In this document: positions 4,930-63,956 of the stretch, in pieces
Numbering within the stretch: the first letter of the stretch is position 1
Layout of the letters: the number at the start of each line of letters is the position of its first letter
NCBI GenBank assembly: GCA_046757585.1
Contig: JBHHYR010000001.1
Span: 3,354-67,353, forward strand
Direction: 5' to 3'
DNA length: 64,000 nt
Source of the DNA: Candidatus Binatia bacterium
GTDB taxonomy: Bacteria; Desulfobacterota; Binatia; HRBIN30
The notes under the pieces: generated by a model
What the model saw: only the letters and a program-made list of their open reading frames with translations
Told to the model about the DNA's origin: nothing
The model's database searches: none
Position numbers and translations under genes: made by a program

Positions 4930-6111
4930 TCACGGACAGCGCACGTCCGGCGTCGCCGCGCCGGCTTCCTCCGGATCCGCCCGGTGGATCGCGGAGGATT
5001 TGAAGGTCACGTAGACCCGCGTACCAACGTTGAGGGCCATCTCCCGGTACGAGTGGTGTGTGATGCGGGCCATCAGCGGCTGGCCACAGTCGACGGTCAT
5101 CACAACCCCGCGCGCGTCTTGTTCGACCTTGCAGATGTGCCCGGGAAAGCAATTGCGGGCACTCGAGTGCAGCGGCGCCAGCGACACGATGATGGCCGTC
5201 GGATCAATGGCTACCGTTCGTGGCGCGAACGCGTCGGGAATTTCAATGCGCAGCGCTCCGCTCAGGAAGTAGTTGGCCCCGTCCTGGCGAGCGGTGGTGC
5301 CGCGCAGCAGGTTGACCAGCGGGAACGGCGCCAGGCGCCCGCCGACAAGCGAGACGATCGTGTCACTTACGCGATACGCCTGTGCGACGTTGTGCGTTGT
5401 CAGAATCACCGTCTTGCCTGCCGCGCCGAGGCGGCTCATGAGCGACTCGACAACGGGAACGTGCTGCCGGTCCACGTTGGCGGTCAATTCATCGAAGAGA
5501 TACACGGGCGGGTCGATTGCCAGGGCACGTGCGATGGCCACACGTTGCGACTCGCCGCCGGAGAGTTTCCACGCTGGTCGTTCAGCGAACCCCGCCAGCC
5601 CGACCGCCGCCAAAGCGGCCTCGACGCGCTCCTTCGCTGCCAGACGCCGCGCGCGCAGCCCGTACGTGATATTGGCGCGCACGGACCGGCGAAAGAGCAG
5701 CGGCGCGTGCGCCACCAGGGTCACCTGGCGCCGGTACGCCCGCAGGGCAGGCTCTCGGAATGACACCGGGCAGCCGCGGAACTCTACGACCCCGGCACTC
5801 GGGCACGCCAGGAATGCGAGGACGCGCAGCAGACTGGTCTTTCCCGCTCCGTTTGGTCCAACAATGGCGGTGACCCGTTCCGCTGGCAGATCGAGCGCCG
5901 GGATGTCCAGCACGACCCGCCCCCCCTGTGCCGCCCGAAACCCACGCAACCGGTAGGCAGGCCCGTCCGACAGCGGCCGCCGCCCGTCCTCACCGGCCGC
6001 CGCGTCGCGGTGCCTGCCGTACGGGGCGAGGGGTGAAGACGTGTGAGTCATCGTTCTCGAGCTGTGGACCGCACGTCGGCCCGCCTCCAACCCGGGCCAA
6101 CTCGCGTACAC
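4930..6111 (-). CDS. tupC: ABC transporter ATP-binding protein with C-terminal TOBE-like domain (tungstate/molybdate type)
   Basis: Walker A GPNGAGKTS, signature LSGGESQRV and Walker B LFDE. The C-terminal beta-rich segment (ICKVEQDARGVVMTVDCG..MARITHHS) is TOBE-like. It is last in the operon with the permease and binding protein. The start may instead be the ATG at 6051. Confidence 0.8.
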   Translation of the reverse strand: MYASWPGLEAGRRAVHSSRTMTHTSSPLAPYGRHRDAAAGEDGRRPLSDGPAYRLRGFRAAQGGRVVLDIPALDLPAERVTAIVGPNGAGKTSLLRVLAFLACPSAGVVEFRGCPVSFREPALRAYRRQVTLVAHAPLLFRRSVRANITYGLRARRLAAKERVEAALAAVGLAGFAERPAWKLSGGESQRVAIARALAIDPPVYLFDELTANVDRQHVPVVESLMSRLGAAGKTVILTTHNVAQAYRVSDTIVSLVGGRLAPFPLVNLLRGTTARQDGANYFLSGALRIEIPDAFAPRTVAIDPTAIIVSLAPLHSSARNCFPGHICKVEQDARGVVMTVDCGQPLMARITHHSYREMALNVGTRVYVTFKSSAIHRADPEEAGAATPDVRCP

Positions 6112-6124
6112 TGCTCCATATCAG

Positions 6125-6811
6125 TCAGTGCGTCGGAGCCAACAGCGCCACCCCGGCATTCACAGCCAAGGCGGTAGCCAAGAGGATGAGCCCGAGTGCG
6201 AAGCCAAAGGCAAACTCCCCCTTGCTGGTTTCAAGCGCGATGGCGGTGGTCATCGTGCGGGTGCTGCCGGCGATGTTTCCCCCCGCCATGAGCGCCACGC
6301 CGAGTTCGGAAATCAGCCGGCCGAACCCCGTACCGACGGCCGCGACAACGCCCCGGCGCATCTCAACCAACACGGTACACGCCGCTGCGAAACGCGAGGC
6401 GCCCAGTGTGAGCGCGGTTTCCTCGATGCGCGGGTCGGCACCGCTGATCACGGCCATGCTCAGCGCTGCCATCAACGGCGTCACCAATATGATCTCACCA
6501 AAGACCATCGCCGACGGCGTGTACAGCAGACCTAGTGGACCGAGGAGACCCCGCCGCGACAGCAGTGTGTAGGCAAGCAACCCGACCACCACCGTGGGTA
6601 GGGCCGTCGACGTTCTGAGGCACAGCTCAACCAACCGGCGGCCACGGAACTCGCGCACGGCGACCCAGAACCCGACGGGGACGCCCGCCACCGTCGCCAC
6701 GGCGATCGCCAGCATAGACACGCGCAGTGACACGCCGGCCGCCGACAGCACCTGCGGATCCAGCGTCAGCAGCAGACGCAGGGCCGACGCGAACGCCTCA
6801 CCGAACGACAT
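6125..6811 (-). CDS. tupB: ABC transporter permease (tungstate type)
   Basis: 228-aa polytopic membrane protein with a BPD-transporter EAA-like loop (IEETALTLGASRF), located between the binding-protein and ATPase genes. Confidence 0.8.
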   Translation of the reverse strand: MSFGEAFASALRLLLTLDPQVLSAAGVSLRVSMLAIAVATVAGVPVGFWVAVREFRGRRLVELCLRTSTALPTVVVGLLAYTLLSRRGLLGPLGLLYTPSAMVFGEIILVTPLMAALSMAVISGADPRIEETALTLGASRFAAACTVLVEMRRGVVAAVGTGFGRLISELGVALMAGGNIAGSTRTMTTAIALETSKGEFAFGFALGLILLATALAVNAGVALLAPTH

Positions 6812-6832: not shown

Positions 6833-7699
6833 TCATGGCGACCGTGGCAGTGGGATCGCGGTGGGATGAAACAGGATCTGCCCCTCCCGTTCAAAGCTGC
6901 CAATGAGCCTCTGCCCTTGGGCCGAGGTGAACCATGCGATCAATTCCATCGCCTCGATGTACTTCACGTGTGGGTGGCGAGCCGGGTTCACGGCAATGAT
7001 GGTGTACGGATTGAACAGGAGGGGATCCCCCTGCGACACGATCACGAGCTCGTCTCGTTTCTTGTAGGCCAGAAACGTCCCGCGGTCAGCCAACGTGTAG
7101 GCCTGGCGTTCGTTGGCCATGAGCAACACCTGTCCCATGCCTTGGCCAGCAGAAACGTACCACGAGCCGCTTGGGGTGATGCCGGCGGCTTTCCAAATAG
7201 CCTTTTCCTTCTGGTGGGTGCCGGACTCGTCGCCCCGCGAGATGAACGTCGCCCGCGCCGTCGCGAGCCATTTGAAAGCGTCCACGGCCCCGGGCGCGCC
7301 ATGCAGGTGCGCCGGGTCGTTGGGTGGGCCGACGATGAGGAAATCATTGTACATGACGGACCGCCGATTGACGCCGAAGCCTGCTTGCACAAACGCCTGC
7401 TCCAGACCGGGGGCGTGGGAGAGCACGACGTCGACGTCCCCGTTCTCGGCAAGTTTCAACGCCTTGCCGCTGCCGACTGCAATGACGTCTACCTTCACAC
7501 GAAAGCGTTGCTCGAAGGGCGGCAGAACGACCGCCAAGAGGCCGGAATTTTCGGTGCTGGTGGTGGTTGAGAGCCGCAAGTGCTCCTGTCCGGGCGCCTG
7601 CGTTGCGGCGAGCAACGCACACGCCGCGGCACAGAATACGACGACCCCCCCCTTCTGCCACAACCGCCGCTGCACAACCTGTCCGACCCGACTCCCCAC
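6833..7699 (-). CDS. tupA: periplasmic tungstate-binding protein (TupA-like)
   Basis: Signal peptide, then LRLSTTTSTENSGLL (the TTTS anion-binding motif of TupA) and NDFLIVGPPNDPA. GTG start with a GGAGGG RBS. Confidence 0.75.
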   Translation of the reverse strand: MGSRVGQVVQRRLWQKGGVVVFCAAACALLAATQAPGQEHLRLSTTTSTENSGLLAVVLPPFEQRFRVKVDVIAVGSGKALKLAENGDVDVVLSHAPGLEQAFVQAGFGVNRRSVMYNDFLIVGPPNDPAHLHGAPGAVDAFKWLATARATFISRGDESGTHQKEKAIWKAAGITPSGSWYVSAGQGMGQVLLMANERQAYTLADRGTFLAYKKRDELVIVSQGDPLLFNPYTIIAVNPARHPHVKYIEAMELIAWFTSAQGQRLIGSFEREGQILFHPTAIPLPRSP

Positions 7700-8060: not shown

Positions 8061-8644
8061 TCCTCGCCTCCGGCGTAGCGCTGGAGCTGCGCTCGCAGCC
8101 ACAAGCGCGCTCGATGCAGGCGCGTGCGGGTCGCTGCCACTGACAAACCGGTAGCTGCGGCGATATCCTCATGGGTGGCGCCTTCTGCGTCTTTGAGCCA
8201 CACGATCGCCCGATCCACCTCGGGCAGGCCCTCGAGCGCACGTGTGAGTGCGGTGCGCAACTCGGCCCGGCGCGCTGGGGCTTCGGCCGACTCTGTCCAG
8301 TCCTGCCCGGGCTGGGCGTGCATCCCCATCCAGTTGAACTGCGGGATGTCCTCCTCCAACGTGACCGGATTGCGGGCGGCAGAGCGGCGGCGCATGAGTG
8401 CACAGTTCACCGCAATGCGGTGCAACCACGTGCCGAAGGCAGCTGTGCCGCGGAAGCTGGCGAGCTTCTCGAACGCCGAGAGCATCGCTTCCTGGTACAC
8501 GTCAGCGGCGTCGGCGGAGTTTCGCAGTATCTTGAGCACAACCTGATACACCCGGCCCTCGTAGGGCCGAATTAGTTCCTCGAAGGCCGGTGAATCTCCG
8601 TCCAGAACCCTCGCCACCAGGGCTGCCTCATCGCGATTCGCCAT
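8057..8644 (-). CDS. ECF-type RNA polymerase sigma-70 family factor
   Basis: Region 2 (RVYQVVLKILRNSADAADVYQEAMLSAF) and region 4 HTH (HEDIAAATGLSVAATRTRLHRAR). The start is taken at the internal ATG (MANRDEAALV), by analogy with the paralogue at 53505-54092. Confidence 0.85.
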   Translation of the reverse strand: MANRDEAALVARVLDGDSPAFEELIRPYEGRVYQVVLKILRNSADAADVYQEAMLSAFEKLASFRGTAAFGTWLHRIAVNCALMRRRSAARNPVTLEEDIPQFNWMGMHAQPGQDWTESAEAPARRAELRTALTRALEGLPEVDRAIVWLKDAEGATHEDIAAATGLSVAATRTRLHRARLWLRAQLQRYAGGEE

Positions 8645-11741: not shown

Positions 11742-12455
11742 ATGATGGTACGCGGCGCCTGGCTCCTCGCCACGCTCGCCGCTACCCTGTGTTTCCGGCC
11801 TGGACCAAGCGCGCTGGCTTCGGAACAGGGGCGCGTTCTGTTCCAGGAAGACTTTGAAGCAGGAATCAGCGACCGCTGGGTGGAGCGCGGGTTTCCGAGC
11901 ATCGAGCGGAAGAATACCTTCTCGCTGGCAACCGACCCAGTTGGAAATCACTACCTGAAGGTCGAAAGCGCGCAATCGGCCTCCGGCCGGGGCGTTCATC
12001 TGAGGTTTTCTCCGCGGGCGTGCTCCGATGTGAGTTGGCGCTGGATGGTGTCCCACGCAATCGCCACCGCTGATATCACGCGGCGCGAAGGTGACGACGG
12101 GGCTGCTAAGCTGTATGTGGTTTTCGATGGCCCATCGCTGTGGAACCCGTTCGACAAGCGCGTCATCGTCTATGTGTGGGACAACGCCGCACCAGTTGGT
12201 CGCGTGTTCCACAACGCCTGGCTCCCGGAGAAGGAGCGGATGCTCGTATTGGAGAGCGGAAACGAGAAGGCCGGCAGGTGGGTCACCGAACGTGTGCACT
12301 TGGCGCAAGATTTCGGTCGCGCGTTCCCGGGCGAAAGACCCGGCGAGGTCGAAGCACTGGCCTTCATGGCCGACACGGACAATACTGCCACACAGGTGTC
12401 AGCCGGCCTGGATGACTTGGTCATCCGTTGCAGGGCACCAGAGCAGAGGCACTAG
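11742..12455 (+). CDS. DUF3047 domain protein (secreted)
   Basis: Signal-like MMVRGAWLLATLAATL, then the conserved W..M..........DDGAAKLYVVF...RVIVYVWD pattern of DUF3047. The TAG stop is formed at the junction with the repeat element. Confidence 0.65.
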   Translation: MMVRGAWLLATLAATLCFRPGPSALASEQGRVLFQEDFEAGISDRWVERGFPSIERKNTFSLATDPVGNHYLKVESAQSASGRGVHLRFSPRACSDVSWRWMVSHAIATADITRREGDDGAAKLYVVFDGPSLWNPFDKRVIVYVWDNAAPVGRVFHNAWLPEKERMLVLESGNEKAGRWVTERVHLAQDFGRAFPGERPGEVEALAFMADTDNTATQVSAGLDDLVIRCRAPEQRH

Positions 12456-24438: not shown

Positions 24439-25643
24439 GTCGCGCGCACGACGAACAGCGCGATCCCCAGGGTGACCAACGCCGCGGAGGCGAATCGGCG
24501 GAGGCGGCCTTCCATGGAGACAGCCGTGAAACGGCGGAAGAGGCCGAACAGGGCCAGCACCAATGCCAGAGCCACCAGCTGACCGGCCTCTACGCCGAGG
24601 TTGAAGCCGGCGAGCACGGGGACCAGCGCACCCCGTCCGATCTCCAGGTCGCTGATCGCGCCCGCGAAGCCGAGGCCGTGAATGAGACCAAAGGCCGAGG
24701 CGGCCAACCAGGGGAGCGCGCGTGGATAGAGCCGTCGTTGGCTGGCACGCATGTGCGCCAGGGAGAACAGCATGACGCCGAGGAGCGCAGGCGCAGGGAC
24801 CGACAGCCAGCCGCTCGCGCTCGCGGCGAGGGCCACAATGGCAAAGGCCACGAGCGCGGCGCGGCCGTGCGCCAGCAGCGGTTCGGCCGCCACTACAGCG
24901 ACGCTCAACCCGATGAGCGCTTCGACCGCGGCCGCGCGGTCCACCGTGATCAGCCGCCCCAGCGCGAGACCCAGCGTGAGGCTGTGGCCCAAGGTAAAGC
25001 CGGTCACGGCGCGCACCACCGCACCGAGTGACTCGGCACTGAGAAGCAGCGCCGCCAGGAAGGCGAGATGATCGTAGCCGGTGGCGATGTGCGTGACCCC
25101 GAGCAGAAAGAAGCTGGCCAGACCGTGGTCGCCCAGTGCCCGGCCCCGGTGAGCAAGCGAGAGGGTTCGCTGTGTATCGGACAGCACCGCTTCGTGACTC
25201 GTGACCGTCCCGCCCGCGGCACGCACGCGGACCCGCGCGATGTGCATGTGCGACGGCGCCTGGTCAAAGAACGCGCCGAACACAATGGTATCCGCAGAGC
25301 CACCGGGGCAGCGACTCTGCCAGCGATACACGAGCGCATTCGCCGGACCGGGGAGTCGTTCGGGATGCGATACGGCCGGACACGGCCTGTTCCGGACCAG
25401 GGCAGACACGTGCGCGACGAGGTAGGCACCCAGTGCCTCCTCTGGTGCCGAACCGGGCACCAGGTCGCCCAGCGTCCCGACGCCCATCGCGGGCGCCGCC
25501 CGGGCGATTTCGAGCCACGGCACCTTGAGCCGCACGGTGACCGTCTCGCCCGCGATGTCCCAGATGGAATAGGAGGTGCTCCGGGCATGTGCGGACACCT
25601 GAGCGGGCCAGAGTAGCGGCACGCCGAACAGGAGCGCCGCCAT
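24435..25643 (-). CDS. HupE/UreJ-family membrane protein with extra N-terminal periplasmic domain
   Basis: C-terminal half: GVTHIATGYDHLAFLAALLL...GFTLGHSLTL...GLIHGLGFA, the HupE/UreJ signature. The start is taken at ATG 25643 (signal-like MAALLFGVPLLWPAQVSA). The 619-aa six-frame ORF overlaps the next gene. Confidence 0.7.
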   Translation of the reverse strand: MAALLFGVPLLWPAQVSAHARSTSYSIWDIAGETVTVRLKVPWLEIARAAPAMGVGTLGDLVPGSAPEEALGAYLVAHVSALVRNRPCPAVSHPERLPGPANALVYRWQSRCPGGSADTIVFGAFFDQAPSHMHIARVRVRAAGGTVTSHEAVLSDTQRTLSLAHRGRALGDHGLASFFLLGVTHIATGYDHLAFLAALLLSAESLGAVVRAVTGFTLGHSLTLGLALGRLITVDRAAAVEALIGLSVAVVAAEPLLAHGRAALVAFAIVALAASASGWLSVPAPALLGVMLFSLAHMRASQRRLYPRALPWLAASAFGLIHGLGFAGAISDLEIGRGALVPVLAGFNLGVEAGQLVALALVLALFGLFRRFTAVSMEGRLRRFASAALVTLGIALFVVRAT

Positions 25644-56730: not shown

Positions 56731-57138
56731 TTAGGGTGTCGCGTGTGCCGGGCGTTGCTGGCGTTCATGAATCTCGCGGACGAAAATGGTGCACCACGGC
56801 TCTGCATAGGTTCCAGACACCGTCACCTCCTTCTCGTGCAGCGCCGCCGATTTGATGCGTTGCTCGATTGCCGGAGTCGCGCCGATCAGGTGCGCAATCA
56901 TGTCCCCTTCCATCAACAGCAACGCGTCATGTTCGCCGCGCTCACAGCCCGGCAACTTCTGTTGGAGGAGGTCTTCCCCTGCGCAGATCAGGCGCCCCTG
57001 GAACGTTCCTTCCGTGCGGACACCCTGAAAGTATTTCTGAATGGCAGCTGATAGTGGCTTGTGCTCCTGGGCGCGCACCACGCCGCAGCACAGTCCGGTT
57101 GCCAAGCCGACGGCAGCGAGAAGGGAGTCGACCCGCAT
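56731..57138 (-). CDS. small secreted hypothetical protein
   Basis: AAGGAGGA RBS and signal peptide MRVDSLLAAVGLATGLCCGVVRA. No family recognised. Confidence 0.5.
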   Translation of the reverse strand: MRVDSLLAAVGLATGLCCGVVRAQEHKPLSAAIQKYFQGVRTEGTFQGRLICAGEDLLQQKLPGCERGEHDALLLMEGDMIAHLIGATPAIEQRIKSAALHEKEVTVSGTYAEPWCTIFVREIHERQQRPAHATP

Positions 57139-57510
57139 AGGTCCTCCTTGTGGCATGCTGCAAGAGTGCCAGATGCTTTGCCTTACCCGCCTGCGTACCT
57201 AAGAGATGCTCCCCCCCGGCGTGTCATAGGAACTTTAAGGTCCTTAGATGCCCGCAGGGGCTGGTGCGTTGCACGAAACGTTTCCCGCAACCGCTGCGTG
57301 GGGCGAGGATTGTTCTGCAACACTCTGCGGGTCTGGCGCATCTTAACAAGCACAGAGGAGCCCAGGAGATTCATACCGCCAAACCATGACAACGACGGAC
57401 GGCGCCGCCCCCCGCGCCCGGCCGTCGTCTCCTGGGTTCCTCTACCAACCACCGTGCAGTTCCGGCAAACGAAGTGCGAAAAAAGACAGCCGCGTGCCGC
57501 CACCCGGCGC

Positions 57511-58842
57511 ATGCAGCGTCGGCGGCTGCTTGACCGTCTCTGGCTGCCGTTCCTAACCGGGCTGTTGTGGGCATCGTCCGTGGCGGCGGCCTCGCCCCCG
57601 CGCAAGACTCTCACACGCTTTCACGACCCGGTTATCGTATCCACCTCCCTGCTGGCAGGACTGGCGGACCACCGGACCGCGCAGAGCCGGCTCTACAGCG
57701 CGCGGCGGGGGGTCTTGGTCCCGATTCCGTTTCAGTTCGATGCACGCCATGGCGACGGGGACGTCGTTTTCCCAGACACGGCAGCCGATCAGGAATTCGT
57801 TTTCGACGACAACGACGAGCTAGTCTTCATGGCAAAAGATACCGGTGATCGCGTCCCACGCAGCGTGCTGCCTTCGCAGAGCGACGCCGCACTTGAGATT
57901 GCGGTGACGGATCCGCTCACCGGCGAACAGGGGTGGACATACCTGCTCCATTTCCCAGGCGCCCCCCCACCCAGATCACCCGTTACCTATGCAACCTTCG
58001 ATGTCCAGACCAATCAGGCGCGCACGCCGTTGTACACGATGGAATATTACCCTGGTCGCAATTTCTTTACCGGCATGCGCATCGCACCGGCCGCAGGTGG
58101 AACGGGAGAGAATATCCTCGACCGGATGAAAGTGCGGGTCAATCCAACCTTCTCGCTATTGCTCACCAGTTGGAGCCCCCTGTTCACCGAGGAGGACTTC
58201 TCGGTGAAAATCGACGGCGTCAAAAACGGAGCGGTGCGCGCCATCCGTCGAGTTCGGCAGTGGCTCAACCTGGGCAAGTTCTTTCCCCACGTCCCCGGCG
58301 GCACGGTGTACACTTACTACTATTTCAGTTCGTTCAGTACACCGTCGAAGTTTTCGATCCCGTGGCTGGTCCTGAAAGCCCTGCGCGGTTTCCGTTTCGT
58401 CGGCGCCAACGACTTCCGCAACAGCGCAATCGGGATGACGTACTGGGATGCAGCGAACCCCCAGGGCCTGCCGTACACAGGTCACAACCACGCCACGGTC
58501 AACCGCAGCCAAGATCATGGCTGGTGGGTCGTCAGCGGTCGCGGCGGCACCTGCCTGCATGCCTTCGTCATTCCCGAACAGTGGCGCAAATGGGGCATTG
58601 CGCGAGGCACGATCTTTACGGACGACAGCGGCATGACCGACGCCGAAGGGCCGGAAGACAATCCGGGTTCCTTTCTGGCTGGCTACAGCCTGCTGCACAT
58701 GACGAATCTTCGCCAACCCGGGGTCTATGACATGAACCTTGCGGTCTTCATCTTGCCGCATCCGTACCGGCCAGGTGACGAAGCGCAGCCGCTGGCGATG
58801 CTGAAACATCCGCTGCGAGCGAAGGTGCATCCCGTGGAATGA
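57511..58842 (+). CDS. secreted hypothetical protein (about 440 aa)
   Basis: ATG 57511 followed by signal LWLPFLTGLLWASSVAAA. Non-biased composition along the whole length. No family recognised. Confidence 0.55.
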   Translation: MQRRRLLDRLWLPFLTGLLWASSVAAASPPRKTLTRFHDPVIVSTSLLAGLADHRTAQSRLYSARRGVLVPIPFQFDARHGDGDVVFPDTAADQEFVFDDNDELVFMAKDTGDRVPRSVLPSQSDAALEIAVTDPLTGEQGWTYLLHFPGAPPPRSPVTYATFDVQTNQARTPLYTMEYYPGRNFFTGMRIAPAAGGTGENILDRMKVRVNPTFSLLLTSWSPLFTEEDFSVKIDGVKNGAVRAIRRVRQWLNLGKFFPHVPGGTVYTYYYFSSFSTPSKFSIPWLVLKALRGFRFVGANDFRNSAIGMTYWDAANPQGLPYTGHNHATVNRSQDHGWWVVSGRGGTCLHAFVIPEQWRKWGIARGTIFTDDSGMTDAEGPEDNPGSFLAGYSLLHMTNLRQPGVYDMNLAVFILPHPYRPGDEAQPLAMLKHPLRAKVHPVE

Positions 58843-59005
58843 AGGATTGCCTGTTCCGCGAGGTCGACCGCGGCCCGCATGCAACGTCCAAGATACTTGC
58901 GGCATCGTAAAGGTAGCCTCAAACTGCAAACTCCACCATTCAAGGGGGCGTCTGCCATACCGGCAACCGTATTGTCAGGGGGACGACGGGGATAGCAGGC
59001 AGGAG

Positions 59006-59446
59006 ATGGAGAAAGTACCATACTATGGGGATGTCTGGTCTGTGCCCGACCAACTGGTGGGCGTGGAGACACTCGTGCCTGCCCAGTTCTGGCCTCAGGA
59101 AGCTCCGGACGGTCGTGGGGAACCGGAGCGCCGTCTCATGCGTGCGGTCTTGCAAGACGCTGTTTTATCCTTGAGCACGTATTCGCGGCAGCGAACGGGA
59201 CGTGCTCGCCGCATTGTGGGTGAAGTCGAAATGTGGATGGCAAGCAACGCACGCTCCTACCCCTTTGCATTCGCGACAATCTGCGACGTGCTTGAGCTGG
59301 ACGCCGATCACGTCCGCAAAGCGATTCGCGAGTGGAATCTGGCACTGGTGTCACCGCCACGGGGACGGCGCACACATGCGGGCCGGACGCGATATCGCTT
59401 GAGGCTCAACCGGGACACCCGCAGGCGGCGCCGGGGCGCTGCATGA
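59006..59446 (+). CDS. uncharacterised small protein with Arg-rich C-terminal tail (paralogue B)
   Basis: Homologous to 44297-44785 (ERRLMRAVLQDAV...YPFAFATICDVLELD...IREW). Its stop overlaps the next ATG (ATGA). Start uncertain. Confidence 0.5.
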   Translation: MEKVPYYGDVWSVPDQLVGVETLVPAQFWPQEAPDGRGEPERRLMRAVLQDAVLSLSTYSRQRTGRARRIVGEVEMWMASNARSYPFAFATICDVLELDADHVRKAIREWNLALVSPPRGRRTHAGRTRYRLRLNRDTRRRRRGAA

Positions 59447-60480
59447 CTCGGCTGCGTGCCTACCAACTCCTGTCCGCACTCACCGTGGTGCTGTGCTTCC
59501 TGGTGGGCGCAGTACTTCTGAGCGGCTTCGTGTCCAACACGCTGCTGCCAGCGGCAATGCAACGGGGCCCCACACCACTTGAGACCAACTACTGGGGCTT
59601 TTACATGATGGGGTTTGCCGGGGTGCTGCTCATGACGTGGGGGGCCTGTCTGTTGTACGCCGTGCGCACCCCCGCGCTCGCGCGGGCGGTCGGTACGGCC
59701 ACCGCTTTCGGGCTCAGCCTGAATGCCATCTTCCGCATCCTGGCATGGTTCAGTGGTGAGTACGCCGAGGTCGGTAACCTGCCCCGCATCGAGGCAGCGA
59801 TCATGCTGCTGCTGGCACTGGGGTTCGTCTGGCTGCGCCCGCAGCCGGCTGACATCGCGCGGTCGTCTGCCAAGCGCCGGGGTGTCATGCGTGCTGCCGG
59901 AAGATGGGTCGCCACTGCGGCCTGCCTGGCCCTGCTGCTGGTCGTGGGCACGCTTGATCGCAACTTTCACGGCAGTGCCGAGGTCAGGAGCGACGTGCCG
60001 GCCGCGGTCGGGGAAATTGGCGGTCGGCTGCCCGACTTCACCCTGCCGGACATCACCGGCCGAGCTGTCTCACTGAGTCAGTTCCATGGCCGGAGCCGGG
60101 TCCTGTTGACCTTCGAGCGGTCGCTCGACTGGTGACCATTTACCAAGGCGCGGCTCGTGGAGCTGCGGCAAGTGCTGACGGGCACACCGGACCTCACGGT
60201 GCTCTATGTGATGAGCGGCAACCAAGTGAATGCGAAAGCGCTGAAGTTCATCCACGATCATCGGATGCCGTTCATCTTTCTCGTCGATGGCGACCACCAC
60301 GTCATCGATGAGTTTGGTATCTACAACGACGGGGTGCGCGAAACATTCGAGCAGGGGGTACCACATCCGACCACCTATTTACTCGATCGCCAGGGCATCA
60401 TTCGGTTCAAGGATTCCCGCAAGGACTTCCACGTTTGGCTGTCGGCACCAGTCCTGCGTAACGCACTCAGAGCAATGTGA
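59443..60480 (+). CDS. membrane-anchored redoxin/peroxiredoxin-like thiol-disulfide oxidoreductase with in-frame TGA (probable selenocysteine) at 60133-60135
   Basis: ORFs 59332-60135 and 60157-60480 are in the same frame. Read through the TGA, the sequence is PDFTLPDITGRAVSLSQFHGRSRVLLTFERSLDW-U-PFTKARLVEL...FIFLVDGD...PHPTTYLLDRQGIIRF. This is a continuous thioredoxin-fold AhpC/TSA-redoxin domain with the TGA at the W-C-P-x-C catalytic position. An alternative internal start for the redoxin part alone is ATG 59887. Confidence 0.6.
60149..60167 (+). promoter_or_regulatory. candidate bacterial SECIS hairpin
   Basis: CGCGGCUC-GUG-GAGCUGCG: an 8-bp stem with one G-U pair, starting 13 nt after the UGA, with a G/U-containing apical loop. 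Confidence 0.4.
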
Positions 60481-60660
60481 AGACGGCGCGCCGCCAGGCG
60501 CGCCGAAAACCGCTTGCCGGCTCCACAGTCGCCACGGTGTTTCTGCGGCGCCCGCCCCTCGACCCGCGTAACGCTCTTGCGCGCGGAGCATCGAACTCAT
60601 AATGATGTGAGATGATCCGGTTGCTCGGCAACTTGGTCAGATAAGCTGTTTGAGGACGAC

Positions 60661-61821
60661 ATGACGCAACTGAATATCGAAGAGGTCGTGGGGAAGCGAT
60701 ACACAGAGGGGGCACTGGCCCGCCAGGAGACCCTGTGCTGCCCGACCGACTACGACGACCGCTACCTGGCGGTCCTGCCGGGGGAAATCATCGAGCGGGA
60801 CTACGGCTGTGGAGATCCGTCGGCCTACGTACGAGAAGGCGAAACGGTACTCGATTTGGGCTCGGGCAGTGGCAAGACCTGTTACATTGCGGCGCAGGTC
60901 GTCGGGCCATCGGGCCACGTGATCGGAATCGACATGAACGACGACATGCTAGCCCTTGCCCGCCGGCATCAATCCGAGATCGCGCGTCGTCTGGGGTACA
61001 ACAACGTGAGTTTCCATCGTGGCAAGATCCAGGACCTGCGGACGGACCTCGACGCCGTCGACGCCTACTTACAGCGGCACCCCGTCGCATCGGCGCGAGA
61101 TCTGGCGGCTTTCGAGCGCTTCCGCCGGGAACAGCAGTCGACGCACCCGCTGGTGGCCGATAATGCGGTTGATGTGGTCGTGTCCAACTGTGTTCTCAAC
61201 CTTGTCTCTGACGACGACAAGCAGGTGTTGTTCGCCGAATTGTTTCGGGTGCTCCGCCCCGGGGGCCGCGCGGTGATTTGCGATATCGTGTCGGACGAGT
61301 GCGTTCCCCAGAGCCTCAAAGAAGACCCGGATCTATGGTCCGGTTGCATCGCCGGAGCGTTTCAGGAAGGCGCCTTCCTCGACGCCTTCGCGACAGCGGG
61401 CTTCTATGGCATCGAGTTGCTCAAGCGGGACGTGCAGCCGTGGCGGACCGTTGCCGGCATTGAGTTCCGTTCTGTCGCCGTCCAAGCATGGAAGGGAAAG
61501 CAGGGTGAATGCTGGGACTACAATCAAGCAGTCATCTACCGGGGACCGTGGAGCGAGGTGCGAGACGACGACGGGCATACGCTACGCCGGGGTGTCCCGA
61601 TGGCCGTCTGTGAGAAGACCTTCCGTCTTTACACGCGCGAGCCCTACGCACGGGGCATCATCCCGGTCGCACCACGCGTCGCAGTCGACCCCGCCACGGC
61701 CCGGCCCTTCGACTGTACCCGCGAGGCGGTCCGCCACCCCCGTGAGACCAAAGGTCGAGACTACCAGGCAACGAGCGCCGCCCCGGCCACGTGCTGCGGG
61801 CCGGCGGGCGACTGCTGCTGA
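60661..61821 (+). CDS. arsM: arsenite S-adenosylmethionine methyltransferase-like protein
   Basis: SAM motif VLDLGSGSGKTC and the ArsM-type conserved cysteines: ETLCCPTDYD, DYGCGDP, VVSNCVLNLV and LWSGCIAGAF. Confidence 0.8.
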   Translation: MTQLNIEEVVGKRYTEGALARQETLCCPTDYDDRYLAVLPGEIIERDYGCGDPSAYVREGETVLDLGSGSGKTCYIAAQVVGPSGHVIGIDMNDDMLALARRHQSEIARRLGYNNVSFHRGKIQDLRTDLDAVDAYLQRHPVASARDLAAFERFRREQQSTHPLVADNAVDVVVSNCVLNLVSDDDKQVLFAELFRVLRPGGRAVICDIVSDECVPQSLKEDPDLWSGCIAGAFQEGAFLDAFATAGFYGIELLKRDVQPWRTVAGIEFRSVAVQAWKGKQGECWDYNQAVIYRGPWSEVRDDDGHTLRRGVPMAVCEKTFRLYTREPYARGIIPVAPRVAVDPATARPFDCTREAVRHPRETKGRDYQATSAAPATCCGPAGDCC

Positions 61822-61837
61822 ACCGCACGGTTTCTCC

Positions 61838-62839
61838 ATGCAGGTCGATTGCCTGTCCGCTCCGTGCGACTTCGCGGTAACGCTCCGGCGCCATCGCCTC
61901 GGAGTTCTGCGCCGCGGCGTGCTCCGGACGCTGCAAGTCAACGTCGGCAAGCTGTGCAACCAGGCCTGCCACCATTGTCACGTAGACGCTGGGCCAAAGC
62001 GCACGGAGATCATGGGCCGTGCCGCCGCGGAACGGGTGATCTTGCTGCTCGGGCAGAGTCCCGCCGTTGAAATGCTGGACCTTACTGGAGGCGCGCCCGA
62101 GCTCAACCCGCACTTCCGCTACCTGGTCCAGCAGGCCCGGGCGATGAACCGACGTGTGACGGTTCGCTGCAACCTGACCGTGATCTTCGTTCCGCAGATG
62201 GAAGGTCTGCCACGGTTCTACCGCGACAACGAAGTCGAACTCGTCTGCTCGTTGCCGTGTTACACTGCAGGGAACGTGGACGGCCAGCGCGGCCACGGCG
62301 TGTTCGACCAGAGCATTGAGGCGCTGCGGTTGTTGAACCGTCTCGGCTATGGCCGTGCCGGCTCGCCGCTTGTACTCGACCTCGTCTACAACCCAGTCGG
62401 CGCCTTCCTGCCCCCGCCGCAGGCAGCGCTGGAAGCCCGGTACCGAGAGGAACTGAAACGGCTGTTCGGCATCGAGTTCCGTCACCTGTTGACCGTCACC
62501 AACATGCCAATCAAACGGTTCGCCGACCAGTTGTACCGCTGGGGGCAGTACAACGAGTACATGGGCGTCCTCGTCAACCACTTCAATCCGCGCACGGTCC
62601 GCGCCCTGATGTGCCGCAGTCTGGTCAGTGTCGCCTGGGACGGCAAGCTGTATGACTGCGACTTCAACCAGATGCTGGAGCTCCCGATCATCCCGCCGTT
62701 GGCGGCCGCAGGACAACCGCTGACCGTGTGGGATATCGAGCGAACTGAACAGCTCGAGGGGCGCCCGATCGCCACCGGCGCACACTGTTTTGCGTGTACG
62801 GCCGGCGCCGGTTCGAGCTGCGGGGGGGCGCTGGCGTGA
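61838..62839 (+). CDS. arsS: radical SAM / Cys-rich-domain protein of the ArsS (arsenosugar biosynthesis) family
   Basis: Radical SAM motif CNQACHHCH and the family-typical C-terminal Cys-rich tail AHCFACTAGAGSSCGGAL. It lies directly downstream of arsM. Confidence 0.82.
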   Translation: MQVDCLSAPCDFAVTLRRHRLGVLRRGVLRTLQVNVGKLCNQACHHCHVDAGPKRTEIMGRAAAERVILLLGQSPAVEMLDLTGGAPELNPHFRYLVQQARAMNRRVTVRCNLTVIFVPQMEGLPRFYRDNEVELVCSLPCYTAGNVDGQRGHGVFDQSIEALRLLNRLGYGRAGSPLVLDLVYNPVGAFLPPPQAALEARYREELKRLFGIEFRHLLTVTNMPIKRFADQLYRWGQYNEYMGVLVNHFNPRTVRALMCRSLVSVAWDGKLYDCDFNQMLELPIIPPLAAAGQPLTVWDIERTEQLEGRPIATGAHCFACTAGAGSSCGGALA

Positions 62840-62843
62840 ACGC

Positions 62844-63956
62844 GTGGTAACGACCCTCGTCTTCTTGGTGCTCGCCGCCCTGTTCGTGGCCTACGCCAAC
62901 GGTGCCAACGATAACTTCAAGGGCGTCGCGACGCTGTACGGCAGTGGCACCCTCGAGTACCGCGGCGCGCTTCTCCTGGCGACCGTCGCAACGTTTCTCG
63001 GATCGCTGGCCGCGCTTTACGTCGGCGGGAGCCTGATCAGCAGCTTCAGCGGGAGGGGCCTCGTCCCGGACACGGTTGTGGCCGACCCCGCCTTCTTGAG
63101 CGCCGTCGGCTTCGGCGGAGCCTTGACGGTTCTCCTCGCCACGCGGCTCGGTTTCCCCGTTTCAACCACACACGCACTCGTCGGTGCACTCATCGGCGCT
63201 GGGATCATCGAAGCGGGCGCGGCCGTGAATCTCGGGCGCCTAAGCAGTATGTTCCTCATGCCCCTACTCATCAGCCCGATCATTGCGTCAGCACTGGCAA
63301 GCGCCCAGTATCCAACCTTCAGCGCCTTACGGAGGAGGCTCGGCATCACGCGAGAGACCTGCGTCTGTGCCGGCGAAGAACTCGTCCCAGTCGCTACCCT
63401 CGGCGGGACGGCCACCGCCGCGCGGGTCACAACGCTCACCCTCGATACCACGCCGAAATGTATCGAGCGTTACCAAGGTGCGGTCGTTGGCGTCGACGCC
63501 ACCACGCTCCTCAACGGCCTGCACTACGCTTCTGCAGCCGCCGTGAGCTTCGCCCGGGGTGTGAATGATACGCCCAAGATCGTCGCGTTGCTCCTGGCCG
63601 CACATCTGGTGGCGCCACGGCATGCGTTCGTTCTGGTCGGGATCGCCATCGCCCTTGGAGGGCTACTCGGGGCCCGGCGCGTGGCGGAGACGATGAGCCA
63701 CAAGATCACACCCATGAACCCCGGTCAGGCCTTCACCGGCAACCTCGTCACCGCCCTGTTGGTGCTGTTCGCCAGCCGGCTGGGCCTTCCGGTCTCCACC
63801 ACGCACGTTGCCTGTGGCGCGCTCGGAGGGATCGGGGCCGTGAACCGCCAGGCCCACTGGAGCACCATCGGCCAGATCCTCCTCGCGTGGGTGACCACCC
63901 TGCCGCTGGCGGCAGCGCTCGCGGCCGCCACGGCGCTCGTCCTAGCAGTCCGTTGA
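62844..63956 (+). CDS. PiT-family inorganic phosphate (and arsenate) transporter
   Basis: Duplicated PHO4 signature GANDNFKGVATLYG / GVNDTPKIVA and GFPVSTTHALVGALIG / GLPVSTTHVACGALGG. GTG start at 62844. The last four codons and the stop lie inside repeat copy 3. Confidence 0.85.
   Translation: MVTTLVFLVLAALFVAYANGANDNFKGVATLYGSGTLEYRGALLLATVATFLGSLAALYVGGSLISSFSGRGLVPDTVVADPAFLSAVGFGGALTVLLATRLGFPVSTTHALVGALIGAGIIEAGAAVNLGRLSSMFLMPLLISPIIASALASAQYPTFSALRRRLGITRETCVCAGEELVPVATLGGTATAARVTTLTLDTTPKCIERYQGAVVGVDATTLLNGLHYASAAAVSFARGVNDTPKIVALLLAAHLVAPRHAFVLVGIAIALGGLLGARRVAETMSHKITPMNPGQAFTGNLVTALLVLFASRLGLPVSTTHVACGALGGIGAVNRQAHWSTIGQILLAWVTTLPLAAALAAATALVLAVR

Follow-up and report, generated by a model that had tools for sequence, protein, structure and literature searches.

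An in-frame UGA at an invariant cysteine position

Within the window (the whole stretch of 64 kb of DNA that was analysed), the TGA at 60133-60135 divides an open reading frame at 59332..60135 from another at 60157..60480, and the locus raises the question of whether this triplet ends a gene or is decoded as selenocysteine (Sec). Both parts lie in a single shared frame, as the earlier note had stated and as the ORF list and the readthrough translation of 59443-60480 bear out. We consider it very probable that 59443-60480 is one selenoprotein gene, in which UGA encodes Sec, a hairpin serves as the bacterial SECIS (bSECIS) element and the product is a membrane-tethered redoxin resembling TlpA and CcmG. 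The features of the locus under this reading are as follows (evidence in brackets).

59443..60480, + strand, probable selenoprotein gene, 345 codons including the Sec UGA, then its own TGA stop (translation)
59443..59841, + strand, predicted four-helix membrane domain, residues 1-133 (tblastn synteny; AF2; no invariant Cys)
59899..59970, + strand, predicted fifth helix, the signal-anchor of the redoxin, MRAAGRWVATAACLALLLVVGTL (hydropathy, positive-inside counts)
60016..60408, + strand, thioredoxin-fold (AhpC-TSA/Redoxin) domain, residues 192-322, spanning the UGA (Pfam PF00578)
60112..60144, + strand, probable active-site motif F-E-R-S-L-D-W-U-P-F-T (columns of alignment A1 invariant or nearly so; 115/115 Sec forms among the matches listed)
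60133..60135, + strand, UGA probably read as Sec, residue 231 (alignment with an invariant Cys; TGA in related loci)
60149..60167, + strand, probable bacterial SECIS hairpin, with 5' arm 60149-60156, loop GUG 60157-60159 and 3' arm 60160-60167
60358..60375, + strand, V-P-H-P-T-T loop, with Pro309 (60367-60369) at the predicted cis-Pro position (phmmer alignment with CcmG 3kh7)
60478..60480, + strand, genuine TGA stop of the gene (translation)

The gene start at 59443 agrees with that of the NCBI protein (P0001) and of a homologue (P0002), and its ATG overlaps the stop codon of the upstream ORF (ATGA). The AhpC-TSA match runs across the TGA at residue 231, so the redoxin domain is uninterrupted, as had been proposed. 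In the 17 full-length homologues, the TGA column corresponds to the sole invariant Cys (Cys83 of alignment A1), embedded in the motif FERS[LIV]DW-C-PFTKARL, and the Cys forms are single polypeptides that carry TGC or TGT at this position (16 loci). The placement of the TGA at the first Cys of a redox motif, made in the earlier note, thus stands, but the motif is C-P-F-T and not C-x-x-C. In a homologue of 61% identity (L001), the corresponding codon is also TGA and the frame goes on beyond it. Further loci with TGA at this position include L002, L006, L007, L014, L016, L017 and L018; in all, 7 GTDB reference genomes (Binatia and Myxococcota-type MAGs) and at least 120 contigs from metagenomes have it. 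These contigs were retrieved by a DNA pattern that left out the hairpin, and yielded 115 distinct Sec forms, the proteins of which are diverse (among the matches listed, median identity 55%, minimum 33%).

The UGA is therefore conserved, and the open frame that follows it is under purifying selection: dN/dS over the first 46 codons after the UGA is 0.13-0.23, with similar values in the upstream part. The earlier note had asked whether homologues might end at this position or lack the downstream half; in the relatives the frame continues. Codons +1 to +7 (PFTKARL) are strongly conserved as protein among the matches listed (P, K and L 100%; T and R 98%; A 93%), and in the Sec forms among these matches residue +2 is F or Y and codons +1 and +3 show synonymous variation of about 1 bit.

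A genome-wide reassignment of UGA is not indicated because TGA is the stop codon of 27 of the 39 Pfam-supported genes in the window (the selenoprotein gene included), and an alternative genetic code was ruled out on the same grounds. When the window was scanned for further coding-like in-frame TGAs, nothing but the selenoprotein gene and a spurious antisense case at 25029 was returned. No promoter-like site was found in 58700-60800, and the terminator scan of the same interval gave one terminator-like site, within the coding region and with no excess over shuffles.

The hairpin downstream of the UGA

The candidate bSECIS element, CGCGGCUC-GUG-GAGCUGCG, is a hairpin of 8 bp that starts 13 nt past the TGA, and folding returned it as the minimum-free-energy structure (local fold -14.1 kcal/mol), confirming what had been noticed in the earlier note. 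Taken by itself, the window hairpin is statistically insignificant: folding of the 68-nt segment gave a z-score of only -1.5, and the window is GC-rich, with a comparable hairpin (at least 8 bp) after 3.3% of its TGA triplets. Its significance comes from comparative data. Among the matches listed, the hairpin is kept in 115/115 distinct Sec forms, with 99.3% of stem cells paired and a loop that opens with G-U in 111/115. Compensatory changes were found at three of the eight pairs (C-G to G-C, G-C to A-U and C-G to U-A), a level of covariation reached by 0 of 500 shuffles.

Synonymous freedom disappears precisely in the stem codons of the Sec forms and comes back in the Cys forms. In the former (among the matches listed), the stem codons have synonymous entropies of 0.00, 0.07, 0.17, 0.00 and 0.22 bits, compared to 1.23 bits for the loop codon and about 1 bit for the flanks; in the latter, the same stem codons reach 1.63, 1.94 and 1.12 bits. 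The stem is broken to 2-6 pairs in 14 of the 16 Cys forms (L005 keeps 7 pairs and L008 all 8). The hairpin is thus under selection where TGA is present, and the SECIS claim of the earlier note, which had made it depend on conservation of the hairpin in orthologues, is well supported. The stem also coincides with the conserved peptide KARLVEL, so that part of its conservation is at the protein level; as an example for teaching, the locus shows cleanly how RNA and protein constraints act together on one SECIS element.

In the available text of PMC13188914, the bSECIS model is given as a loop of 3-9 nt starting with G and then G/U, a stem of 4-16 bp, a position 16-37 nt from the UGA, a minimum free energy of -7.5 kcal/mol or lower and a stem-loop inside the ORF. 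The hairpin here lies within all of these bounds (GUG loop of 3 nt, 8 bp, 21 nt from UGA to loop, -14.1 kcal/mol), its triloop being at their lower limit. It differs from the consensus in its minimal triloop and in having no bulge. According to the same text, bSECIS elements commonly share little resemblance, whereas the hairpin sequence is near-invariant across two phyla because it also codes for the conserved helix A-R-L-V-E-L. Rfam gave no match for the whole window at the gathering threshold or for 60100-60230 at E<=10 (Rfam may hold no bSECIS model).

Other readings of the TGA have to be weighed against these results. The NCBI annotation comprises the 230-aa N-terminal piece up to the TGA alone (P0001, named "peroxiredoxin family protein"), which, together with the chance frequency of hairpins given above, could be taken to indicate that a Cys-type redoxin gene has recently acquired a nonsense mutation and become a pseudogene, or that the sequence contains an error, the hairpin being coincidental. 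Against this, the same-codon TGA recurs in independent contigs and reference genomes with protein identities of 33-70%, so the contigs are not one clonal sequence, the frame is open to a normal stop at low dN/dS, and the hairpin shows synonymous-site selection with compensatory changes; the pseudogene reading is effectively refuted, and we give it a negligible probability. It is also highly improbable that the locus holds two separate genes, i.e., a membrane protein ending at the TGA and a protein of about 107 aa starting from the in-frame GTG at 60157, as might be supposed from that GTG and from the numerous database fragments of about 82 aa or about 100 aa. Such a split would sever one thioredoxin fold at its active site, the seven codons between TGA and GTG are conserved as protein with synonymous variation, the starts of the gene-caller fragments are scattered over profile positions 91-109, and the Cys homologues, as noted, are not divided.

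UGA with C as the next base is considered prone to leaky termination, and among the matches listed C follows the UGA in all forms, which could point to readthrough without Sec in a genome lacking the Sec machinery (near-cognate Trp, Cys or Arg, or inserted Cys). The position, however, is that of the catalytic Cys, where function would be kept by Sec or Cys alone. The hairpin, furthermore, fits the SelB-type bSECIS model as described in the available part of PMC13188914, including the G-U that opens the loop, and in a related Binatia MAG (L147) an adjoining PrdB-like ORF carries a UxxC motif with TGA in frame, together with a hairpin, which suggests that the Binatia lineage decodes Sec; we regard readthrough without Sec as quite unlikely. 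As for the machinery, no SelA, SelB or SelD domain was found by Pfam in approximately 50 ORFs scanned in the 64-kb window, and ARAGORN detected no tRNA of any kind in the window and no tRNA-Sec in any related locus examined. The proposal of a selenoprotein is strongly supported by the Sec/Cys pairing, the recurrent TGA, the selection on the downstream frame and the contrast between a covarying hairpin in Sec forms and a decayed one in most Cys forms.

Membrane partner, anchor and gene neighbourhood

The earlier note had called the protein membrane-anchored, which is supported and understates the matter, since five helices are predicted, four of which represent a conserved partner protein fused in the window gene. 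Most relatives encode the four-helix part in a gene of its own (about 150 aa), and 31 database homologues are stand-alone proteins. With tblastn it was located next to the redoxin, on the upstream side, in 24 of the first 25 loci, and in 114 when all 146 were counted. It has no conserved Cys, and AF2 models it as four long helices (pLDDT 91). A loop predicted to be periplasmic, W-F-S-G-E-Y-A-E-V-G-N-L-P-R-x-E, is conserved. No match was obtained for this domain among Pfam, NCBIfam and PDB folds; Foldseek against the PDB gave nothing beyond E=0.17 with TM<0.5, and the MAPEG and tetraspanin-like matches were dismissed as generic helical bundles. Judged from gene order and profile searches, the four-helix protein is the one conserved partner of the redoxin and belongs to no known family.

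The fifth helix aligns with the N-terminal anchor of stand-alone homologues of 199 aa and is preceded by an Arg/Lys-rich loop predicted to be cytoplasmic. Hydropathy and the positive-inside rule predict an outward-facing redoxin domain, and the structure model of a homologue (P0008) has an N-terminal helix at residues 2-20; the redoxin domain would thus face the periplasm.

From these data we infer a scheme for SelB binding, actual Sec insertion, chemistry, substrate and the role of the four-helix partner. The hairpin, as bSECIS, would recruit SelB-GTP-Sec-tRNA(Sec) once the UGA enters the ribosomal A site, and the second TGA, 114 codons on and without a hairpin, would end translation. Helices 1-4 would form a Cys-less bundle, normally a separate, translationally coupled partner and here fused, and helix 5 would act as the signal-anchor that puts the TlpA/CcmG-like thioredoxin-fold domain in the periplasm. 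A selenolate located where helix alpha-1 begins would attack an oxidised substrate of the envelope (peroxide, sulfenate or disulfide), and the resulting selenenic acid or selenenylsulfide would have to be resolved by an external thiol because the domain has no resolving Cys.

Downstream on the same strand, arsM begins 180 nt from the selenoprotein gene, followed by arsS and pit, and the earlier note had linked the protein to these arsenic genes. A functional part in the cluster (ArsM-like, ArsS, PiT), e.g., in membrane arsenic or organoarsenical redox, would be in line with this proximity and with the Sec forms known in the ArsM and ArsS families and in arsenate reductases (available text of PMC13188914). 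The link fails on synteny: with the window proteins as queries, ArsM, ArsS and PiT had no tblastn match at 1e-6 in 146 related loci, L147-L150 have other neighbours, and the adjacency was thus seen in this window only, among 150 other loci examined that included the closest Binatia relatives. Moreover, arsM, arsS and pit are packed closely together (a 17-nt gap, then an overlap) and are set off by the 180-nt gap, which contains a strong, all-GC hairpin of 8 bp. ArsM and ArsS belong to families of soluble enzymes of the cytoplasm; for the redoxin domain, a periplasmic position is predicted. We consider an arsenic role improbable.

Annotation and comparison with known systems

The closest relatives in the databases are pieces of about 82 aa that end at W82 or of about 100 aa that begin past the UGA, a fragmentary pattern that is expected of Sec genes that go unrecognised. 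Among the 50%-identity cluster representatives, at least 13 are fragments ending right before Sec, compared to about four full-length Cys forms, so the family would seem to be mostly selenium-dependent. A "(seleno)protein" family model would mend at least 100 gene calls, including that of the window gene, which is stored as 230 aa plus about 107 aa. The locus probably adds an exported, membrane-tethered selenoprotein (as predicted) to the Binatia and the Myxococcota, both of which are common in soils and sediments, and the pairing with a Cys-less four-helix protein, occasionally fused, points to an uncharacterised envelope redox module. It is possible, and we put it forward tentatively, that W-U-P-F-T redoxins and this partner make up an uncatalogued two-component, selenium-dependent envelope redox system that would be widespread among Myxococcota and Binatia of soils and sediments, with Sec predominant over Cys, and in which the partner (fused in the window) would supply or gate substrate or reductant by a mechanism unrelated to that of DsbD, CcdA, DsbB or VKOR.

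None of the NCBIfam selenoprotein models attained its cutoff with the window protein. In the available part of the family table of PMC13188914, no entry was found that combines the W-U-P-F-T motif with this domain; literature term searches, as far as the text of the retrieved papers was available, named no W-U-P-F-T family, and the search for Binatia gave no paper containing Binatia or Binatota. With the Prx-like/Trx-like selenoproteins (PF00578 or cd02966, with UxxC or UxxU; available text of PMC2398784 and PMC13188914), the window protein shares the AhpC-TSA thioredoxin fold, Sec at the N-terminal Cys of the redox motif with coexisting Cys-form homologues, and a bSECIS hairpin in the coding region right after the UGA. 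It differs from these proteins, as they are described there, in its U-x-x-T motif without a resolving Cys, in being exported (predicted) and membrane-anchored, and in its four-helix membrane partner. Among the Sec forms listed, only the divergent L057 and L114 show UxxC (U-P-Y-C), and Thr occupies the second Cys position in 98% of the Sec forms among these matches and in most Cys forms. The motif is thus C-x-x-T with no second Cys even in Cys forms, and the chemistry of the domain would therefore be that of a single Sec without a resolving Cys.

The glutathione peroxidases, as far as the available text of PMC13188914 describes them, likewise have a lone Sec in a U-x-x-T motif where a helix of a thioredoxin-like fold begins. 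The window protein gave no PF00255 match and has ERSxDW upstream of Sec. The upstream motif of glutathione peroxidases is presumably NVAS; the resemblance is one of motif alone and may serve as a lead rather than indicate membership.

The AhpC-TSA match (PF00578, E=1.3e-18, 67.6 bits against a cutoff of 26), accompanied by a Redoxin match (PF08534, 1.1e-09, 38.7 bits against 26.6), is held in common with the peroxiredoxins (BCP/PrxQ, Tpx, AhpE). These are also the top Foldseek matches; that search was run on the model of the Cys homologue P0008 (50% identical), not on the window protein, and returned Tpx, BCP, AhpE, ResA and CcmG at TM 0.7-0.8. Since Foldseek cannot tell the two folds apart, the choice between peroxiredoxin and TlpA-like protein was made on motifs. 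The 1-Cys peroxiredoxin AhpE and the window protein have one catalytic chalcogen each. The peroxiredoxin signature P-x-x-x-T/S-x-x-C is missing in the window family, which has F at -7 and L/I/V at -3, and the NCBIfam peroxiredoxin cutoffs were missed (BCP 34.3 bits against 140, PrxQ 22 bits against 260). Peroxiredoxins have a conserved catalytic Arg ahead of the beta-strand x-T-F-[VIL]-[IV]-D; in what may be the equivalent region, the window family has an invariant P-x-P-T-T-x-x-x-D loop, which aligns with the cis-Pro loop of CcmG. By a manual alignment to the AhpE sequence, the thioredoxin cis-Pro may stand here at the position of the catalytic Arg.

Among solved structures, the best sequence matches to the window redoxin were with the TlpA/ResA/CcmG(DsbE)/Etrx group (cd02966), a profile search of the PDB giving Etrx2, TlpA and ResA as the best (2yp6, 4hqz, 4txo, 1jfu, 4nmu). 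The NCBIfam cutoffs of this group were likewise missed (ResA 22 bits against 170; TlpA 20.8 bits against 230, with homologue P0003), and the neighbours examined included no partner of the CcdA/DsbD type. In the window protein, Thr takes the place of the second Cys of W-C-x-x-C, so that the dithiol of this group is lacking, and compared to CcmG there is an insertion of 12 residues ahead of the cis-Pro. Shared with the group are the N-terminal membrane anchor with an outward-facing domain (predicted here), the Trp directly before the nucleophile and the cis-Pro loop, in which phmmer aligned hPTTYLLDrqGiirfK with aPETYLIDkqGiirhK of CcmG 3kh7; alignment A1 shows no variation at the G, V, P, P, T and T of this loop. 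By its motifs (W-U-x-x-T and cis-Pro), the protein resembles TlpA and CcmG and does not appear to be a true peroxiredoxin.

The reading frame across the TGA and its homologues

The gene under study has 345 codons, one of which is an internal stop (LLTFERSLDW-stop-PFTKARLVELR) at which the ORF track divides the gene:

59443-60480, + strand, probable selenoprotein gene, with TGA 60133-60135 (residue 231) almost certainly read as selenocysteine (Sec)
59332..60135, upstream ORF, ending at TGA 60133-60135
60157..60480, downstream ORF, in the same frame as 59332..60135

When the internal stop was filled in, Pfam AhpC-TSA matched residues 192-322 in one stretch (E=1.3e-18), so that a single domain spans the TGA; the Redoxin model also matched (1.1e-09). 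The earlier note's description of two parts in one frame, together forming an uninterrupted AhpC/TSA-redoxin domain, was thus confirmed. TGA is the stop codon of 27 of the 39 Pfam-supported genes of the window and of the selenoprotein gene itself (60478-60480), so any decoding of the TGA at 60133 has to depend on its local context; a scan of the window found no coding-like in-frame TGA besides 60133-60135.

A database search returned the NCBI protein of the locus itself ([quoted passage not shown], which breaks off at the TGA after 230 aa), a 221-aa protein that is 61% identical and likewise ends in FERSLDW, and 17 full-length proteins of 199-213 aa reading FERS[LIV]DW-C-PFTKARL, the named ones among them being Myxococcota. 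In the alignment of the full-length homologues, this Cys is invariant and the only Cys of the domain, and the third residue after it is Thr or Ser, never Cys. The Cys of all 17 proteins and the TGA of L001 (the locus of the 61% homologue, in which TGA is followed in frame by PFTKARLVELQ up to the contig end) fall at the position of the TGA in the window. The proposal that the TGA replaces the first Cys of a W-C-P-x-C motif therefore holds for the position, and the motif is corrected to W-C-P-F-T.

In a GTDB scan with one genome per species (25 loci), the codon was TGA in 7 loci (L002 from Binatia; L006, L007, L014, L016, L017 and L018 from Myxococcota-type MAGs) and TGC or TGT in 16, and L026 was only a weak partial match. 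Myxococcota MAG BC2.74 (L025) has a second, degraded redoxin copy at 6001-6342, which loses the frame after FERSVDWCP; this copy seems to be a paralogue with a frameshift, adjoining a partial gene for the four-helix membrane domain. Metagenome contigs were scanned with the DNA pattern TTCGARCGNWSNNTNGAYTGGTGACC, which ends short of the hairpin and matches at least 120 contigs. The GTDB loci and the metagenome matches listed gave a set of 115 distinct Sec-form segments (TGA at this codon), whose domains are diverse (median pairwise identity 55%, minimum 33%, among the matches listed). Two metagenome contigs (L057 and L114) form a divergent branch reading W-U-P-Y-C-K-G-Q-L-V-E-L-Q, in which the UxxC motif supplies a resolving Cys.

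A nonsense-mutated pseudogene and a pair of independent genes were considered as explanations of the split. In all 115 Sec-form segments listed the frame runs on through P-[FY]-T-K-A-R-L-V-E-L-R...PDL. Against four relatives, dN/dS was 0.13-0.23 over the 46 codons that follow the UGA, a level much like that of the 60 codons preceding it, so the downstream half is translated in the same frame. Both explanations were set aside.

Selenocysteine at this codon would also account for how the family appears in databases. For the post-UGA half, the nearest relatives are without exception fragments (90-121 aa), and one carries the name [quoted passage not shown]. A profile search over 1.84 billion cluster representatives yielded, as family-specific hits, about 4 full-length proteins and at least 13 fragments, each about 82 aa long, whose last residue is precisely profile position 82, the Trp preceding Sec; several fragments of about 100 aa start after Sec, and one 225-aa piece resembles a second fused form. 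From these counts, Sec is the predominant state and is systematically mis-called.

Conservation of the hairpin after the TGA

60149-60167, hairpin CGCGGCTC-GTG-GAGCTGCG, 8 bp with a 3-nt loop, starting 13 nt after the TGA

This hairpin, noticed earlier in the sequence, was recovered with its GUG loop and belongs to the minimum-free-energy fold. On a single sequence it is weak evidence, because the 68-nt fold reaches a z-score of just -1.5 and a hairpin of at least 8 bp under loose SECIS rules follows 3.3% of all TGA triplets in the window (65% G+C). Among orthologues, it is kept in 115 of the 115 Sec forms listed, 67 of which have exactly CGCGGCUC-GUG-GAGCUGCG, the others having the loops GUC, GUU or GGG. 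Synonymous entropy, counted among codons for the majority amino acid, was 0.00, 0.07, 0.17, 0.00 and 0.22 bits at stem codons +5, +6, +7, +9 and +10 of the Sec forms (1.23 bits at loop codon +8, about 1 bit at flanking codons) and 1.63, 1.94, 0.75, 0.00 and 1.12 bits at the same stem codons of the 16 Cys forms. In the first set of Sec forms 7-8 of the 8 positions are paired; among the 16 Cys forms, 14 are down to 2-6 pairs, with 7 pairs in L005 and all 8 in L008.

Compensatory changes were found at the closing pair (C-G to G-C in L043 and L130), at the basal pair (C-G to U-A in L086) and as G-C to A-U in L063 and, independently, in the divergent L057 and L114, whose hairpin GGCAACUC-GUS-GAGUUGCA stays paired although two of its pairs have changed and the encoded amino acids differ. 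G-U intermediates are present among the Sec forms, with one uncompensated case (L027). Over 102 distinct sequences, 99.3% of cells were paired, against 33-46% in slid controls; double-sided changes occurred at 3 of 8 pairs (shuffled mean 0.2, reached by 0 of 500 shuffles), and RNAalifold independently predicted the same helix. By these comparisons the hairpin is under selection as RNA. [quoted passage not shown]

Selenocysteine machinery, gene neighbourhood and membrane partner

No tRNA gene was found within the 64-kb window and no SelA, SelB or SelD domain among about 50 window ORFs scanned, which neither supports nor refutes Sec machinery elsewhere in the genome; tRNA-Sec was absent from all fetched loci. 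In a related Binatia MAG (L147, GCA_040961615.1), the pair of four-helix and Sec-redoxin genes is preceded, at a distance of about 100 nt, by the following gene:

6402-7157 of L147, + strand, PrdB-like ORF with TGA at 6882-6884

It matches TIGR04483 at 131 bits, below cutoff (positions 17-220 of 238 covered), and its TGA stands in V-P-V-U-P-F-C (UxxC), followed by the 7-bp hairpin ACCAGGC-CGUGU-GCCUGGU. It is probably a second selenoprotein, and would be a hint that the lineage decodes Sec.

The genes around the selenoprotein gene in the window are:

57061-58842, ORF with no Pfam or NCBIfam match
58847-59446, ORF of 199 aa with no Pfam or NCBIfam match
60485-60504, perfect all-GC 8-bp hairpin GGCGCGCC-GCCA-GGCGCGCC, starting 5 nt past the selenoprotein stop codon
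60661-61821, ArsM-like methyltransferase (NF040538, 365 bits, below the cutoff of 500)
61838-62839, ArsS radical SAM protein (TIGR04167, 428 bits, cutoff 300)
62790-63956, PiT/PHO4 transporter of the PiT family

The 199-aa ORF ends on the start codon of the selenoprotein gene, in an ATGA overlap; should this ORF be real, the arrangement suggests translational coupling. The three downstream genes (60661-63956) are tightly packed, 180 nt from the selenoprotein gene, and may form a cluster for the biosynthesis or transport of organoarsenicals. The ArsM-like protein has a Cys-rich tail (CCGPAGDCC) and best matches, below cutoff, the arsinothricin-type ArsM model, and ArsS is a Cys form ending in GSSCGG. 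The hairpin at 60485-60504 opens the 180-nt gap with no T run after it, and may be a terminator or stabiliser dividing the selenoprotein gene from arsM. A functional link to the arsenic genes, as earlier suggested, was not borne out: ArsM, ArsS and PiT were absent nearby at all other loci fetched, and the link is a local juxtaposition rather than a conserved association.

A stable gene order recurs at L006 and some 40-50 further Myxococcota-type loci: ThiI (opposite strand), four-helix gene, redoxin, OmpA-like gene, TPP-dependent enzyme and DinG-like helicase-exonuclease, the OmpA-like gene lying directly downstream of the redoxin in 50 loci. In the Binatia relatives L147, L148 and L150 (+/- 8 kb), thiol-redox and stress genes recur (CMD/AhpD-like, AhpC-TSA, thioredoxin and DsbH-like proteins, YceI, an ECF sigma with zf-HC2 anti-sigma, and a DedA(VTT)-pyridine-nucleotide-disulfide oxidoreductase fusion of about 785 aa, which may be a source of reductant). 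Homologues of the ECF sigma factor (76% identity) and DUF3047 protein (67%) encoded at 8138-8644 and 11811-12449 of the window flank the gene pair in L147 and L150; in the window they lie about 48-51 kb from it, which indicates that the neighbourhood is rearranged.

Membrane anchoring, claimed beforehand, was supported by prediction: residues 1-133 form four hydrophobic helices, followed by a loop with 6 Arg/Lys and a fifth helix before the redoxin domain, which by the positive-inside rule is predicted to be periplasmic. tblastn placed the four-helix part directly before the redoxin at 24 of the 25 loci of the first set and at 114 of the 146 loci listed overall (many contigs being too short to tell), and in 80 of the 86 listed Sec forms with enough upstream sequence. 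Only four such loci (the window, L001, L074 and L134) have an in-frame fusion; in L002 the genes share an ATGA overlap. At 59881-59901 of the window, within the fusion, an internal ATG (59899, Met153) with GGGG at about -8 lies exactly at the start of the stand-alone redoxins, so the redoxin part might be made separately from the fusion too.

In databases, homologues of the four-helix part appear as separate "hypothetical proteins" about 150 aa long, with no Pfam or NCBIfam family. AF2 gave a confident four-helix bundle (pLDDT 91) with no fold neighbour in the PDB. The best-conserved stretch is a predicted periplasmic loop, W-F-S-G-E-Y-A-E-V-G-N-L-P-R-x-E; there is no invariant Cys, and an electron conduit of the DsbD, CcdA, DsbB or VKOR type was rejected for this reason.

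Comparison with known thioredoxin-fold families

The selenoprotein of the window is a real feature, and is new, or at least unannotated, within a well-known class; it is moderately interesting for its annotation and its uncharacterised membrane partner. Thioredoxin-fold families catalogued in PMC2398784 and PMC13188914 include Prx-like (PF00578; UxxC or UxxU), cd02970 (UxxS), VPGUxxT, UGC-TlpA and Redoxin (PF08534; UxxC). The passages of both catalogues retrieved by search terms hold no entry for W-U-P-F-T with PF00578, and the family may sit inside their generic "Prx-like" bin. No NCBIfam model reached its cutoff (BCP 34 bits against 140, SelL-related 28 against 120, WAxxUGC 22 against 300, ResA 22 against 170).

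In a profile search, the closest solved structures were TlpA, ResA and two surface thioredoxins of S. pneumoniae, Etrx2 and Etrx1; the W-C/U of the family aligns with the first Cys of their W-C-x-x-C. The model of a 50%-identical Cys homologue (pLDDT 83) was roughly as close to peroxiredoxins (Tpx, BCP, AhpE) as to TlpA-like proteins (ResA, Etrx, CcmG, TlpA), at TM 0.7-0.8, so that the fold alone does not decide between them and the motifs do. The peroxiredoxin signature P-x-x-x-T/S-x-x-C is absent, the family reading F-E-R-S-[LIV]-D-W-C instead, and the cis-Pro loop of CcmG aligns with its invariant G-V-P-x-P-T-T-x-x-x-D loop. Because of these two features, we file the domain as a TlpA/CcmG-like thioredoxin fold in which the dithiol has become a single Sec/Cys followed by Thr. 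It would work as a one-chalcogen enzyme, in the manner of 1-Cys Prx or GPx, without belonging to either family.
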